From: a virus
Direction: 5' to 3' (one strand)
DNA length: 64,000 nt
Virus record (IMG/VR): IMGVR_UViG_3300027782_000038
Shown piece by piece: positions 47,435-60,400 of this stretch; position 1 is the first letter of the stretch, and the number at the start of each line of letters is the position of its first letter. The notes below the pieces were generated by a model, which saw only the letters and a program-made list of their open reading frames with translations, had not been told where the DNA came from and ran no database searches. Made by a program: the position numbers and the translations under genes.

Positions 47435-47517
47435 GGGGGTATGGTGAAATTGGTAGACACACTTGGTTTAAGCCCAAACGCTTCGGCATGAGAGTTCGAA
47501 TCTCTCTACCCCCACCA
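47435..47517 (+). tRNA. tRNA-Leu(TAA)
   Basis: Cloverleaf with variable arm; loop TT-TAA-GC, CCA. Confidence 0.9.
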
Positions 47518-53580: not shown

Positions 53581-53656
53581 GCTGACTTAGCTGATGTGGT
53601 CATAGCGGCGGTTTGAAGAACCGTTGAAGTTGGTTCGATTCCAACAGTTAGCACCA
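53581..53656 (+). tRNA. tRNA-Phe(GAA)
   Basis: Loop TT-GAA-GA, CCA. Confidence 0.9.
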
Positions 53657-53661
53657 GAATT

Positions 53662-53738
53662 GCCTCGGTGACGTAATTGGTAGCCGTGTTGGTCTTAGAA
53701 ACCAAATTCTGTGGGTTCGAGTCCCACCTGAGGCACCA
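53662..53738 (+). tRNA. tRNA-Leu(TAG) with short variable loop
   Basis: Leu-type D-arm; loop CT-TAG-AA; 5-nt variable region; CCA. Confidence 0.85.
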
Positions 53739-54606: not shown

Positions 54607-54918
54607 ATGGAAATTATTGCTTTAAAATTAATTACAGGTGAAGATGTTTTAGGTGAACTTGAATCTGAAACAGAACTTGTTGTAGTATTATCTAATCCAG
54701 TTGGTATCGCTGTCGTTCGTGGTAAAGACGGTACACCAAATATCGGATTCTCGCCGTTCCCTATTCATGCGGAACAAAAAAAAGACAACTCAATTGTTTT
54801 CTTAAATAAACACGTTGTTTATCATTATATACCAGCTGAAGATTTTATTACAAATTACAAACAAATCTTTGGTTCAGGTATCGTAGTTCCACCCCAAAAA
54901 CAGATTATTACAGGTTAA
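54607..54918 (+). CDS. Conserved T4-like hypothetical protein (Sm-like fold likely)
   Basis: LKLITGEDVLG...NPV...Y...FGSGIV.P pattern; directly upstream of gp43. Confidence 0.65.
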   Translation: MEIIALKLITGEDVLGELESETELVVVLSNPVGIAVVRGKDGTPNIGFSPFPIHAEQKKDNSIVFLNKHVVYHYIPAEDFITNYKQIFGSGIVVPPQKQIITG

Positions 54919-56216
54919 TGAGCAAATATTATACAAACGTTCAATGTTTCGGTAACAGTATTCTTTACCGAGGCATTATAGACGGTAAACGTGTTAAACA
55001 GAGAATTGATTATTCTCCATCACTTTATCTCCCATCAAGAAAGAATCCACAGGGAAAATTCAAATCACTAACTGGTCTTCCATTAGATCAAAAAGAATTT
55101 GATGATATTCGTGCAGCCAGAGATTTCATCAAGCAATTTGATGGTCTTCCTGGTGCACCTGTCATCTATGGTCAAAATCGTTTTGAGTATGCTTATATTG
55201 CCGATAACAATAAAGGTATGGTTGATTACGATCAGGATAAAATTCTTATCGGTGTAGTTGATATTGAGGTTGGTTCAGAGAATGGTTTTCCTGATCCATA
55301 CCTTGCAAACGAACCAATCACAGCCATTGGCATTAAGTATCTCAATGGTGAAATGGTTGTATTTGGTTGCGGTGATTATGAGAAGAAAGGTACCGAGATT
55401 TACGTCAAATGTAAAGATGAATGGACACTATGCAAAAAGTTTCTAGAATTATGGCAAAAGAAATGTCCAGATATCATCACAGGATGGAACACAAAGTTCT
55501 TTGATATTCCATATCTCATCAATCGTTTTCGTAAGATTCTTGGTGAAGATGATGCTAAGAAATTATCACCATGGAATTACATTGGTGAACGTAAAACCAC
55601 CATTAATGGTAAACAGTTAATTGCCTATGACATGATGGGTGTTGCATCACTTGATTATATTGAACTATACAAATGGTATGCTCCTGGTGGTAAGTCACAA
55701 GAATCATATCGTTTGGATAACATTGCTCAAAATGAATTGGGTGAAGGTAAAATTTCATATGATGAATATGATAACCTACATTCATTGTATCGTTTGAACT
55801 TTCAATTGTTTATTGAATATAACATCAAAGACGTTGAATTGATTGTTAAGTTGGAAGATAAATTAAAGTTACTTGAGATGGCTGTTACTTTGGCCTACGA
55901 TACTAAATCAAACTATGAGGATGTATTTGCACAGACCCGTATGTGGGACGCAATGACTTATTCTTATCTTTTAGAAAAGGATATCATTGTACCACCACGT
56001 ATCATCAAAGAAAAAGATGGTATGTTTGAAGGTGCATACGTTAAAGAAGTACAAGTTGGTGCTCATGATTGGGTTGCCAGCTTTGACCTAAATTCACTTT
56101 ACCCCCACCTTATGATGCAATATTCCATAAGTCCTGAAAATCTTGTGGAAAGAAGTTATATTGAAGATAGAAAACAAAAATTGATCGAGGAGTTAAAGTT
56201 GAGAAATACTAAATAA
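54918..56216 (+). CDS. gp43: DNA polymerase gp43, fragment A (N-terminal and exonuclease domains plus palm motif A)
   Basis: DIEV (ExoI), GWN..FFDIPY (ExoII), YNIKDV (ExoIII) and SFDLNSLYP (motif A). Confidence 0.95.
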   Translation: MSKYYTNVQCFGNSILYRGIIDGKRVKQRIDYSPSLYLPSRKNPQGKFKSLTGLPLDQKEFDDIRAARDFIKQFDGLPGAPVIYGQNRFEYAYIADNNKGMVDYDQDKILIGVVDIEVGSENGFPDPYLANEPITAIGIKYLNGEMVVFGCGDYEKKGTEIYVKCKDEWTLCKKFLELWQKKCPDIITGWNTKFFDIPYLINRFRKILGEDDAKKLSPWNYIGERKTTINGKQLIAYDMMGVASLDYIELYKWYAPGGKSQESYRLDNIAQNELGEGKISYDEYDNLHSLYRLNFQLFIEYNIKDVELIVKLEDKLKLLEMAVTLAYDTKSNYEDVFAQTRMWDAMTYSYLLEKDIIVPPRIIKEKDGMFEGAYVKEVQVGAHDWVASFDLNSLYPHLMMQYSISPENLVERSYIEDRKQKLIEELKLRNTK

Positions 56217-56245
56217 GTAGATGTGGTTACTTATTAGGAGAATCA

Positions 56246-56779
56246 ATGAAATACAATATTACCAAAGATAAACTCTATGAATTGTTTATTACCAAGAATA
56301 TGAGAAGGAGTGAGGTTGCCGAATATTTTGGTTGTTCGGATGCCAACATTAAAAAATACCTACAAAAATTTGCCATCAAGAAGCCTTTTGATTTAGAATG
56401 TAAGAATAAAGAACGAAAGGCCTTGTTGAATTGCTTACATTGTAATAATGAATATGAAACACAAAAGTTTCGGACTGAAAGTGATAAGTATGATTCAAAA
56501 TATTGTAGTTATTCCTGTGCTCAAAAAAGTAGATATTTGGGTGGCGACCACAAACGTAGAATCAGAAATGAAATTGCTGCAAGGCGTAGAGCAAGAATTC
56601 GTAACCAAACACCAAAATTGAGTAAAGAAGAAAAGAAAAAGTTACAAGAATATTATTTGATTTGTCCTAAAGGACATGAAGTGGATCACATACAAGCAAT
56701 TGCAAAAGGTGGTTTACATCATCCTGATAACTTACAGATATTGACTATGAATGAGAATAGAAAAAAGTGGTGTAAATAA
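56246..56779 (+). CDS. HNH endonuclease splitting gp43 between fragments A and B
   Basis: N-terminal HTH, CxxC/YCSxxC and EVDHI.....GGLH.PDNLQIL...EN motifs. Confidence 0.88.
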   Translation: MKYNITKDKLYELFITKNMRRSEVAEYFGCSDANIKKYLQKFAIKKPFDLECKNKERKALLNCLHCNNEYETQKFRTESDKYDSKYCSYSCAQKSRYLGGDHKRRIRNEIAARRRARIRNQTPKLSKEEKKKLQEYYLICPKGHEVDHIQAIAKGGLHHPDNLQILTMNENRKKWCK

Positions 56780-57105
56780 TGTTTCGTAATGTAAAAGAAT
56801 TAACAACCGAAGAACTACAAAAAGAAATTCAGGCCATAGAATTATTTGAACAAGAAATTGGTAAAGTCAATGTTGAGAATATGTTGAACAAATCTATTGA
56901 TACTTCTTTTCTTGGTCCAATGAAATGCACCATCACACCTAACGGCCAGATGTTTAGAACCGACCATCAAGGTTTCTTACCAAGAATGATGGAAGAAATG
57001 TATGAAGATCGTAAGAAATTTAAAAAGTTGATGCTCAAGGCTCAACAAGAGTATGAGTTAGTTTTAGCGGAGATTGAAAAAAGAAGAGGTTTGCAAGAAA
57101 AATAA
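56779..57105 (+). CDS. gp43: DNA polymerase gp43, fragment B (palm segment plus first finger helix)
   Basis: PNGQMFR....GFLP.MM..MY.DRK.FKK.M is the gp43 segment between motifs A and B. Confidence 0.9.
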   Translation: MFRNVKELTTEELQKEIQAIELFEQEIGKVNVENMLNKSIDTSFLGPMKCTITPNGQMFRTDHQGFLPRMMEEMYEDRKKFKKLMLKAQQEYELVLAEIEKRRGLQEK

Positions 57106-57140
57106 TACTAAATAGAGCATGGTCTAAAAAAGGATGATAA

Positions 57141-57917
57141 ATGCCCAATCAATTTAGTGTTATAACAAAAGAAATAGAATCTAAATTAAATGAAATAGAA
57201 AGTATGTTGAAAAGTGGATATAGTGTGGGTGAAATTCAAAAAAAATTGATAAAATATAGTTATAGTGGTATATACAATTGTATTCAAAAGAATGGTTTAT
57301 CCAAATATGTTTCCACTAAAAACATAGGAAAAAGCAGAACATATAAGAAAATGTTAGATGATTATGATAATAACCATGAATTAAATTTTGAAACATTAAA
57401 TCAGTTATATAATGTTGATAAAAAAGATTTATATGAAATTGCTAAAATGTTTGGAGTTAGTCCTTCTGGTGTATTATATCGTATGAGAAAATTGGGTTTA
57501 CAGACCCGAAATAAATCGGAAGCTTCTGAAATCCTTTATATGAAAAAACCTGAACTGAGGGAAACTCATCGTAAAAATGCAAATGAAGGTAAAACAGGAA
57601 TATTCAAAAAAGGAAATAATTATTCAAACACTTGGATAGAAATAGCATTTAGGGAATACTGTGAACTACATAATATACAATTTCAACCACAATTTCAAAT
57701 AACAAAAGATACTCATAGATATGATTTTTTAATTGGCAAAAACATCTTAGTTGAACTTGATGGAACATATTGGCACAACAAGCCAAAACAAAAAGAGAAA
57801 GATGTATTACAGGAAGAATATGCAATAAACAACGGTTTTGTTGTATTGAGGATTACCGATAAACAAATAAAAGAAACAAAAGGTGAATGTTTTGAAATCA
57901 TTAAACGATATGTCTGA
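57141..57917 (+). CDS. Vsr/DUF559-like endonuclease splitting gp43 between fragments B and C
   Basis: T.IE, YDFLI....LVELDGTYWH, D......GF.VLRI motifs plus HTH repeats. Confidence 0.85.
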   Translation: MPNQFSVITKEIESKLNEIESMLKSGYSVGEIQKKLIKYSYSGIYNCIQKNGLSKYVSTKNIGKSRTYKKMLDDYDNNHELNFETLNQLYNVDKKDLYEIAKMFGVSPSGVLYRMRKLGLQTRNKSEASEILYMKKPELRETHRKNANEGKTGIFKKGNNYSNTWIEIAFREYCELHNIQFQPQFQITKDTHRYDFLIGKNILVELDGTYWHNKPKQKEKDVLQEEYAINNGFVVLRITDKQIKETKGECFEIIKRYV

Positions 57918-58996
57918 TTCCGAATTGATTAGTTATAAAAATGAACTGGAAAGGAGAGTTGCAAGATATAATAATTTGCAACTTGCGAAAAAGGTGTCAC
58001 TTTAACTCCGCTTACGGTGCTTTGGGTAGTCAGTACTTTCGTTTTTATGATCTGCGTATGGCACTTGGTGTCACTTCTGCTGGCCAACTTTCCATTAGGT
58101 GGATTGAGTCTAAAATTAACAATTGGATGAATAAAATCATTGGATCTAAAGATGTAGATTATGTTATTGCATCTGATACAGATTCCATTTATCTTCGTAT
58201 GGGTGAATTGGTTGACAAGTTTATCAAAGATACATCCGATAAACAAAAAGTAATCTCACTCATGGATAAAATCTGTGAAGAAAAGATTCAACCATTTATT
58301 GATAAGTCTTATGTTGAGTTAGCTGATTACGTTCATGCATATGATCAAAAGATGCAGATGAAGCGTGAAGGACTATCAGACAAAGGTATTTGGACTGCCA
58401 AGAAACGTTATATTCTAAACGTGTATAATAATGAAGGTGTTCAGTATGCAGAACCTAAGATGAAAGTCATGGGTCTTGAAATGGTCAAATCTTCAACACC
58501 AGCTTCTATTCGTGAAAAGATGAAAGAGTCTATTGGTATTATGTTACGTGGTACTGAACAAGATATTCATAAATTCATTGCTGACTTTAGACAAGAATTT
58601 AAAAAGTTACCTGCTGAAGAAATTTCTTTTCCACGTGGACTGAATGGCTTAGCTAAATACTCAGATGCAGTATCATTGTATAAACTTGGTACACCTATTC
58701 ATGTGAAAGGTGCCATTCTCTATAACAATTATTTGAAACAAAACAATCTTACTAAAAAGTATCCACTCATCCAAGAGGGAGAAAAGGTTAAGTTTACCTA
58801 TTTGAAACTACCAAACCATTTTAAAGATATGGTAATTTCATACCCAAGTAGACTTCCTAAAGAATTAGGCCTTGACAAGTACATAGATTATGATGTACAA
58901 TTTGATAAGGCCTTCTTGGAACCAATCAAAGTCATTCTTAATTGTTTGGGTTGGACAACTGAAAAGGTAAACTCACTGGAAGATTTCTTCAAATAA
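57892..58996 (+). CDS. gp43: DNA polymerase gp43, fragment C (second finger helix, motifs B and C, thumb); requires a +1 shift at 58000-58006
   Basis: Frame 57892 reads MKSLNDMSDSEL...ARYNNLQLAKKVSL* and the +1 frame continues NSAYGALG...SDTDS...KKRY, ending in the clamp-binding tail SLEDFF. Confidence 0.88.
57991..58006 (+). other. Candidate prfB-like +1 frameshift site (or 1-nt insertion error)
   Basis: AAG GTG TCA CTT TAA C aligns with prfB AGG GGG TAT CTT TGA C. Confidence 0.5.
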
Positions 58997-59018
58997 ATTA
59001 TTTTGATTAAGGTAAATT

Positions 59019-60080
59019 ATGAGTATTCTTGAAAAAATTAAAAAGAACAGCAGTATAAAAGATTCGGCAATTTTATCCAAATCAAAATTCTTTACTGATA
59101 AAGATATGATTCCGACTTCTGTGCCAATTATTAATGTGGCACTAAGTGGTAGATTGGACGGAGGTTTAACACCTGGCCTTACAATGTGGGCTGGTCCATC
59201 AAAACACTTTAAGACAGCATTTAGTTTATTAATGGCCAAATCATATTTGGACAAATATCCAGATGCTGCTCTTTTGTTTTATGATAGTGAATTTGGTACA
59301 CCACAGTCTTACTTCGACACATTTAATATTGATACTGATCGTGTTCTACATACACCCCTTACTGATATTGAACAATTGAAGTCTGATATTATGCAACAAT
59401 TATCCAATGTTACCCGTGGTGATCACCTTATCATTCTTGTTGATTCAATTGGTAACTTAGCATCAAAGAAAGAAGTTGATGATGCTTTAGAAGGTAAAAC
59501 TGTTGCTGATATGACTAGAGCGAAAGCAGTTAAGTCATTATTCAGAATGGTCACACCACATTTATCAATCAAAGACATTCCAATGGTTGTTGTCAATCAT
59601 ACATACAAAGAAATTGGTATGTTCCCGAAAGATATTGTTGGTGGTGGCACAGGTTCGTATTATTCAGCTGATAACATCTTCATTCTTGGTCGACAACAAG
59701 AAAAAGAAGGTACTGAAATTGTTGGTTATAACTTTATTATTAATGTGGAAAAATCTAGATATGTTAAAGAAAAATCTAAAATACCTGTTTCTGTATCTTT
59801 CACTGGTGGCATTAGTCGGTGGTCTGGTTTACTTGATCTTGCACTTGAATCAGGAAATGTTATTAAACCATCAAACGGATGGTATAGCAAGGTCGACCTT
59901 GAAACTGGGGAAGTAGAAGAAAAGAAGTATCGTGAAAAAGATACAGACACTAAAGAATTTTGGATGTCAATTATCACAAGTAAAACCTTCCGTGATTTTG
60001 TAGAAACAAAGTATAAAGTTGCTTCTACTGAAATTATGCAGGGTGGTGAAGAAAACTTATTTGGAGATATGGAATGTTAA
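59019..60080 (+). CDS. uvsX: RecA-like recombinase UvsX
   Basis: AGPSKHFKT, FYDSEFG, DSIGNLASKKE, DMTRAK..KSLFR and GGTG..YSA motifs. Confidence 0.96.
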   Translation: MSILEKIKKNSSIKDSAILSKSKFFTDKDMIPTSVPIINVALSGRLDGGLTPGLTMWAGPSKHFKTAFSLLMAKSYLDKYPDAALLFYDSEFGTPQSYFDTFNIDTDRVLHTPLTDIEQLKSDIMQQLSNVTRGDHLIILVDSIGNLASKKEVDDALEGKTVADMTRAKAVKSLFRMVTPHLSIKDIPMVVVNHTYKEIGMFPKDIVGGGTGSYYSADNIFILGRQQEKEGTEIVGYNFIINVEKSRYVKEKSKIPVSVSFTGGISRWSGLLDLALESGNVIKPSNGWYSKVDLETGEVEEKKYREKDTDTKEFWMSIITSKTFRDFVETKYKVASTEIMQGGEENLFGDMEC

Positions 60081-60400
60081 TTGAGGGCATCGACTATTGT
60101 TTCATATATCCAAAAGACGATGCCCAAACGGTACATATTCGTCTTTTGGTTGGTGAATATAAAGATACGGTATTTAAATTTGGAAAAGTAAAATTCGAAG
60201 AAAAGAATGAACAGATGTATTTACTTTTTGCTTATGATGTGTTAGAATCTACTGTATCGAAACCAAAAAAGTTGGAGAAAGATGCCGACTTTAAAAATTA
60301 CATTGGTGACTTGTTGGTTGAAATTATGTCACAAAATATTGAGGAAGAAATAATTGATGAGACTGGAAACGACCATTCTGAAAAATCTGATTTACAATGA
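60074..60400 (+). CDS. Conserved hypothetical protein (gp40 position)
   Basis: 108-aa ORF between uvsX and gp41. Confidence 0.6.
   Translation: MLIEGIDYCFIYPKDDAQTVHIRLLVGEYKDTVFKFGKVKFEEKNEQMYLLFAYDVLESTVSKPKKLEKDADFKNYIGDLLVEIMSQNIEEEIIDETGNDHSEKSDLQ

Follow-up and report, generated by a model that had tools for sequence, protein, structure and literature searches.

The stretch of viral DNA examined here, IMG/VR record IMGVR_UViG_3300027782_000038, is 64,000 nucleotides (nt) long, belongs to a freshwater T4-like phage, and is referred to in full as the window. Positions 54918 to 58996 of its plus strand encode a DNA polymerase of family B and of the T4 type (gp43), broken into pieces, as determined from the list of open reading frames (ORFs) of the window and from Pfam matches (Table 1). 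All of the gp43 motifs were present, with motif A (DLNSLYPH) in fragment 1, motif C (SDTDS) in the last ORF, and motif B divided between KKVSL and NSAYG by a change of reading frame. This report concerns the point at which the frame changes, in the downstream fragment gp43B. We consider it likely that a programmed +1 frameshift takes place there as part of a mobile nuclease cassette, which it probably shields against the nuclease that the cassette encodes.

Frame 0, read from GTG 57883 or TTG 57892, gives ..ARYNNLQLAKKVSL and then meets the stop TAA at 58003-58005. NSAYGALG... is encoded in the +1 frame from 58004, which places the motif B lysine and asparagine in different frames. The initial annotation had described frame 0 as ending in KKVSL-TAA with NSAYG in the +1 frame, and this description was exact. 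The asparagine at 58004 aligned with N564 of RB69 gp43, in a match to residues 564-901 (E = 2e-62). The elements of the site are AGGTG (57992-57996), a 3-nt spacer TCA, a slippery CTT (58000-58002), and a 3' C (58006); the extra T is one of the run at 58001-58003. The 15-mer AGGTGNNNCTTTAAC occurred once in the window against an expectation of 0.03. Decoding CTTT as one four-letter leucine codon yields the junction ..KKVSLNSAYGALG. Applied to the whole of gp43B this reading fails, as two later in-frame CTT-T sites would shift too. The start region of gp43B shares its nucleotides with the 3' end of the nuclease gene but is read in another frame.

Table 1. Features of the split polymerase locus in the window, and coordinates of the CAA variant of the site in other loci (SD, Shine-Dalgarno sequence; aa, amino acids)
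Feature	Coordinates	Strand	Basis
gp43 fragment 1: exonuclease domain and motif A (SFDLNSLYPH)	54918..56216	+	ORF list; Pfam DNA_pol_B_exo1, DNA_pol_B
HNH homing endonuclease gene, the first split of gp43	56246..56779	+	Weak HNH match in Pfam
gp43 fragment 2	56779..57105	+	ORF list
Cassette-borne C-terminal extension of fragment 2, last 15 codons, LVLAEIEKRRGLQEK	57058-57102	+	Absent in unsplit relatives
Vsr-like (DUF559 / EDxHD-type) free-standing homing endonuclease gene, 258 aa	57141..57917	+	Pfam DUF559; homologs at equivalent loci
Likely start of gp43B: SD AAAGGTGA, then TTG 57892; alternative GTG 57883	57879..57894	+	Start candidates positionally conserved across loci
Cassette-borne N-terminal extension of gp43B, VNVLKSLNDMSDSELISYKN, in place of the loop NEKDESKKY of unsplit relatives	57883..57942	+	Alignment
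Cassette-borne copy of 20 polymerase codons, ELERRVARYNNLQLAKKVSL, frame 0, with the motif B lysine	57943..58002	+	
Frameshift site AAA AAG GTG TCA CTT TAA C	57988..58006	+	
gp43B body in the +1 frame: NSAYG (motif B), DTDS (motif C), palm, thumb	58004..58996	+	
CAA variant of the site, AAAAAGGTG CAA CTT C AAC	L123:7488-7517; L124:4117-4146; L129:4976-5005	-; -; +	Three metagenomes

The extra base and its conservation

Compared with cyanophage polymerases and with the closest genome that has no cassette, L133, the window had exactly one extra base, at CTT-T-AAC. The initial annotation had called a sequencing or assembly error, in which TT was read as TTT and the true gene is in frame, an equally simple explanation. 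A single-base difference in a short T run fits such an error, as does the finding that the 80 nearest unsplit relatives in IMG/VR (70-85% amino acid identity) were all in frame (80/80) and none had the site. However, an independent JGI contig (L134) was the same as window positions 57474-60196 with 2 mismatches and kept CTTTAAC, and the exact 27-mer around the site was found in 4 IMG/VR contigs from 4 metagenomes with flanks unlike those of the window. A degenerate pattern requiring a single extra base between Leu and Asn was run on IMG/VR and on JGI and ENA metagenomes, and a protein search added loci. The same one-base insertion was found in at least 25 other assemblies, comprising 18 distinct sequences, with downstream fragments as low as 47% in amino acid identity to that of the window. 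The extra base was also accompanied by special codon choices and by strict linkage to the nuclease cassette. Because diverged and independent assemblies (JGI, ENA, and IMG/VR) and a second contig of the same phage share the insertion, the extra T is real DNA. We rejected the error explanation and give it practically no probability.

The +1 frameshift cassette of prfB, the gene for release factor 2 (RF2), has the sequence AGG GGG UAU CUU UGA C. In the loci found here, AAA-AAG-GTG-nnn-CTT-N-AAC was invariant in 18/18 distinct sequences, with N being T in 17 and C in 1. Codon choice was evaluated in these 18 sequences at the 13 positions within -21 to +20 codons that were invariant in amino acid and had a choice of codon. 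The 5 positions of the site (Lys AAA, Lys AAG, Val GTG, Leu CTT, and Asn AAC) were all codon-invariant (5/5) and the other 8 all varied (Fisher p = 1/1287). Among 70 distinct relatives that are in frame, codon use at these positions was free, with GTG used in 1/70, CTT in 22/70, AAG in 20/70, and AAC in 50/70. The spacer codon was variable (TCA, TCT, TGT, AGT, CAA, or GGT) at a constant spacing of 3 nt. Lys -5 was always AAA, which is more than a model based on AGGUG demands. This comparison, with signals invariant in 18 diverged sequences, strongly supports the proposal of the initial annotation that a prfB-like +1 site completes KxxxNSxYG. CTT TAA C was kept in 17 of the 18 cassette-bearing sequences, and the site was absent from the 70 distinct cassette-free relatives (0/70).

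Between frameshift-bearing lineages, the ratio of nonsynonymous to synonymous substitution rates (dN/dS) in the +1 ORF was 0.06-0.13, with synonymous sites saturated. These values point to strong purifying selection on a functional +1 ORF, which is, therefore, translated. A polymerase gene in three or four pieces could also be a decaying pseudogene in a phage replicated by another polymerase. The low dN/dS across lineages, the intact motifs A, B, and C, and the maintenance of the site over deep divergence all oppose this explanation, and we regard it as exceedingly unlikely.

Translation of the +1 ORF could also be accomplished with no frameshift if a peptide of 37-40 amino acids ended at the TAA and the C-terminal fragment started separately in the +1 frame, at ATG 57941 in the case of the window. 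The +1 frame is open upstream and has an ATG in the window, L084-L087, and L126, and gp43 genes in pieces are known (PMC2677866). However, the ATG of the window was not conserved, and in most loci the +1 frame upstream of the site contained stops. The AGT spacer of L091 and L096 gives rise to a +1-frame TGA two codons ahead of NSAYG, and no start codon follows this stop. With the frame closed in this way, separate initiation is excluded there and the ribosomes have to come in from frame 0. Substitutions between the window and L085 in the overlap were synonymous or conservative in frame 0 and were all nonsynonymous in the +1 frame. A separately started product would be without the motif B lysine at the KxxxN spacing, and the invariant GTG, CTT, and AAC codons would be left unexplained. 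A separate start is, therefore, very improbable in our judgment.

Correction of the extra base in RNA, by transcriptional slippage or editing, was considered as another possible scenario, as an A5 run (AAAAAG) and a T3 run are both invariant at the site. Known bacterial transcriptional slippage sites are far longer than these runs of 3-5 bases. Loss of an A would produce KRCHFNSAYG, in which KxxxN is broken, and the conserved features (an SD-like element at an exact 3-nt spacing, CUU, a stop, and a 3' C) are signals of translation. RNAalifold run with the 18 sequences (-1.2 kcal/mol) and single-sequence z-scores near 0 gave no sign of a conserved RNA structure or a stimulatory hairpin around the site. 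Taken together, these points make correction in RNA highly unlikely. A hop over the stop from CUU to CUC (+6) was also rejected, as it lands in frame 0 and gives LRLRCFG followed by a stop.

The nuclease cassette and its movement

All loci with the frameshift had a frame-0 ORF of just 40-55 codons ahead of the site, which lay 37-52 codons into the polymerase fragment, and in all of them the polymerase was split just upstream. Between the fragments was a homolog of the Vsr-like nuclease of the window, at 39-71% identity; in six lineages the nuclease was reduced to a remnant of 100-215 nt that still encodes its last residues (..KGECFEIIKRYV in L085). The nuclease of the window matched Pfam DUF559 (E = 9e-6, 26 bits compared to a cut-off of 20.6), with helix-turn-helix regions in its N-terminal part and ELDGTYWH..RITD in its C-terminal part; ELDG..WH and R.TD were invariant in 6 nuclease homologs. 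Used as a single-protein query, it retrieved one close relative only, and an alignment-based search recovered more. Every locus found by searching from the nuclease side was a polymerase locus that also has the site, and one lineage among them had escaped the first pattern. The extra T was present in every nuclease-bearing locus, and the site was never found without the cassette or its remnant among the frameshift loci and the 70 distinct cassette-free relatives. In L109-L115, Vsr-like nuclease genes of lower similarity (catalytic domain 37-39% identical) were observed directly before ORFs starting MNKFIEQFNS.., beside terminase-like sequence. These loci may be another kind of "fractured genes".

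Unsplit relatives read ..QQEYE-NEKDESKKY-EIEKRIARYNNLQLAKKVSL-NSAYG. In the window the loop was replaced by a 15-residue tail with a stop, the nuclease gene, a new SD and start with a 20-residue extension, and the 20-codon copy. The cassette, approximately 1 kb in length, breaks gp43 about 60 nt upstream of motif B. The extra T directly follows the 20-codon copy and is situated at the 3' edge of the cassette, between the Leu and Asn codons. A split intein or a group I intron at this break was rejected; the spacers are too short, and the 15- and 20-residue extensions are without intein blocks.

The cassette of the window was 96-100% identical to that of L136 over approximately 1,050 nt and 94-100% identical to the portions present in L135 and L084. 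The polymerase downstream of the cassette, in contrast, was only 64-84% identical between the window and these three. Likewise, L088 and L100 were 90-100% identical from approximately -1000 to +20 and about 72% identical on both sides. High identity stopped 5-30 nt 3' of the extra T in all compared pairs, and the left edge was in the conserved GFLP..MMEEMY codons. The genome nearest to the window, L133, is 90-98% identical in neighbouring genes, has the HNH split, and is in frame without a Vsr-like cassette. Against this background, window positions 57939-58380, directly 3' of the cassette, were only 62-80% identical to L133, and this patch has the appearance of a tract co-converted from the donor of the cassette. 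Mosaic patches of this sort are indirect evidence that the nuclease may cleave the cassette-free allele at a specific site. In the tree of downstream fragments the frameshift rows were scattered; at least 7 changes were needed, at least 3 of them forced by well-supported branches. These data show that the cassette moves horizontally between diverged polymerase backbones, with the site at its right-hand end.

The HNH insert, which adds 676 nt and is placed between motif A and GFLP, was common to the window, L014, and L133 (1706-2239), and L014 and L133 are in frame. Because this insert is also present in in-frame relatives without the Vsr-like cassette, the two polymerase breaks, HNH and Vsr-like, have separate histories. 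At the same position as the HNH gene of the window, L041 had an in-frame insert of approximately 870 nt between motif A (1954) and GFLP (3034); this could be an intein or an in-frame nuclease fusion. In L130, on the minus strand and upstream of the site, an insert in the exonuclease region of the polymerase ended in ..NGYVVHN followed by C, which resembles an intein C-terminal splice junction. A hot spot of variable insertions separates the polymerase from uvsX, with only 22 nt in the window, an extra ORF of 131 amino acids at L133:3859-4254, one of 172 amino acids at L136:2595-3113, and one of 274 amino acids at L135:1151-1975.

Proposed mechanism and reason for the site

We propose that a ribosome would start at TTG 57892, preceded by the SD AAAGGTGA, and translate 37 codons, at which point the A site would hold UAA-C and peptidyl-tRNA-Leu would occupy CUU. 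The AGGUG that lies 3 nt before CUU would pair with the anti-SD of 16S rRNA and favour a +1 slip of the tRNA onto UUU. With AAC decoded next, the product would be a gp43B of 367 amino acids with an intact KxxxNSxYG, reading ..KKVSLNSAYG.. as in the in-frame relatives, and VSLNSAYGALGSQYFR is the junction peptide predicted for it. Termination by release factor 1 (RF1) or RF2 would compete with the slip and leave a dead-end peptide of 37 amino acids. Because of this competition, the yield of gp43B should drop as release-factor activity rises, a dependence that the initial annotation had suggested; with UAA, this dependence would not be specific to RF2. The phage itself has genes for tRNA-Phe(GAA), tRNA-Leu(UAG), and tRNA-Leu(UAA) (window 53581-53738 and 47435-47517). 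The tRNA-Leu(UAG) is the tRNA type that slips on CUU in yeast Ty1, and the tRNA-Leu(UAG) and tRNA-Phe(GAA) of the phage might take part in the slip.

As for the reason why the site exists, membership in the nuclease cassette, which the initial annotation had not recognised, is probably the answer. The extra T would disrupt the target of the nuclease in conserved motif B DNA, and genomes bearing the cassette would be protected. The presence of the T in every nuclease-bearing locus, its position inside the transferred segment at the very edge, and an architecture like that of mobA and gene 60 of phage T4 all fit this immunity idea. We lean somewhat towards protection against a nuclease that recognises or cuts the invariant motif B DNA of cassette-free phages as the reason for the extra T.

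The frameshift could instead be real but regulatory, adjusting how much gp43B is made, or when, relative to gp43A, or sensing release factors or translation status. The six lineages without a nuclease gene retain the split and the site, competition with termination is inherent in the mechanism, and the 24 tRNA genes of the phage amount to a heavy investment in translation. However, the site was never found apart from the cassette or its remnant, it is always at the 3' edge of a horizontally moving segment, and unsplit relatives manage without it. Retention after loss of the nuclease would also be expected if the site guards against the nucleases of co-infecting relatives. We consider a regulatory role less likely than not.

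Several points weigh against a frameshift that originated as a part of, and protection for, the cassette. The frameshifting is predicted here from sequence, and we infer that it is the ribosome that corrects the extra base. In the window, ATG 57941 opens the +1 frame 21 codons upstream, and separate initiation is possible for the window phage alone. The lineage of L123, L124, and L129 has C as its extra base, with CAA as the A-site codon and no stop. This lineage has lost the nuclease gene and has an intact +1 ORF of 344 amino acids; either the stop is dispensable or another route is in use. The stop in the other sequences is UAA, which is read by both release factors. The initial annotation had raised the same point about UAA; the RF2-specific feedback of prfB does not apply. 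The extra T persists in the nuclease-less lineages, and the immunity idea can account for this in an indirect way only. All of the cassettes may share one ancestor, in which case the 18 sequences are not 18 independent inventions; nonetheless, the varying synonymous sites around the cassettes show long divergence. Lastly, the edges of the cassette fall where the DNA of the gene is most conserved (GFLP..MMEEMY and motif B), and the crossovers may reflect the homology on offer and not the position of a cut.

Comparison with known systems and significance

The site resembles that of prfB in having an SD-like element 3 nt before a P-site CUU that can re-pair on UUU, a stop and C in the A site, and no downstream RNA structure; in both, the full-length protein needs the shift. 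It differs in having UAA in place of UGA and an SD-like AGGUG built of Lys and Val codons, and in the one lineage with a sense CAA. The product is a fragment of DNA polymerase and not a factor that reads stops, so no autoregulation would follow, and the site is within a mobile element and interrupts a catalytic motif of a phage polymerase.

In T4, the homing endonuclease gene mobA is paired with the 50-nt translational bypass of gene 60 (Bonocora et al. 2011, PMC3182709, as cited in PMC5009743). The MobA element consists of a C-terminal extension, the nuclease, an N-terminal extension, a replacement homologous region, and a recoding site (PMC5009743; 10.1101/2022.08.31.505936). The 50-nt bypass insert, and not nearby polymorphisms, blocks MobA (PMC5009743; Manning & Atkins 2022, 10.1101/2022.08.31.505936). 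In the locus described here a free-standing nuclease likewise splits an essential replication gene, with a C-terminal extension upstream of it and an N-terminal extension of the downstream ORF that overlaps the nuclease gene out of frame. There is a replacement copy of adjacent host codons (20 codons here, in the role of "HomR"), and the recoding signal ends the element about 40-46 codons into the downstream ORF. Clean mosaic edges, several backbones, and some nuclease-less copies are further likenesses. The two differ in that a +1 shift of 1 nt takes the place of a 50-nt hop, motif B of polB that of the Toprim domain of a topoisomerase, and a Vsr-like nuclease that of an HNH nuclease. They have no sequence homology and are analogous; protection was shown for MobA, and we infer it here.

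Vsr-like homing endonucleases (EDxHD, I-Bth0305I-type) and "fractured genes" were described by Dassa et al. 2009 (PMC2677866). This family is known mainly from aquatic metagenomes, and most of the described fractured genes are mended by split inteins (PMC2677866). The nuclease of the window is like these in its DUF559/Vsr type, its N-terminal DNA-binding regions, and its free-standing position between the halves of a phage replication gene. Unlike those genes, the break described here has no intein and is accompanied by a putative ribosomal frameshift. Split gp43 is also present in the T4-related Aeromonas phages 25 and Aeh1 (Petrov & Karam, as cited in PMC2677866), in which a family B replicative polymerase is likewise in fragments with a homing endonuclease gene between them. 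The break point is different in those phages, the nuclease is GIY-YIG, and no recoding is reported in the account of them given there.

Among GenBank phages there was no close relative of the polymerase (the best were cyanophages, at 62% amino acid identity), no homolog of the nuclease, and no cassette. No earlier description was found in the literature on frameshifts, homing endonucleases, gp43, and Vsr-like nucleases, a search in which subscription journals were mostly uncovered. To our knowledge, natural prfB-style +1 frameshift sites are essentially limited to prfB itself, and T4 gene 60 is the only case known to us in which a homing endonuclease is paired with recoding. We consider the question evenly balanced as to whether this cassette is a second, independently evolved element of nuclease and recoding, in which a Vsr-like nuclease acts on motif B and its own target was ruined by an insertion that was shaped into a prfB-style site.

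If true, this would be a second case both of a prfB-style site and of the pairing of nuclease and recoding, within a catalytic motif of an essential enzyme. Synthesis of the catalytic fragment would be set by a race of tRNA slippage against release factors, and the CAA variant would mean that a stop is not required. The approximately 18 natural variants of the signal, with six spacer (E-site) codons and one variant without a stop, make up a ready mutational series for +1 frameshifting. Gene callers split or truncate such polymerases, which affects phylogenies based on polB and the annotation of aquatic myoviruses. The cassette is widespread in uncultured freshwater T4-like phages and still moves between genomes. 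The locus suggests a general rule, that selfish nucleases on invariant coding DNA may escape self-cleavage through insertions or deletions that the ribosome ignores.

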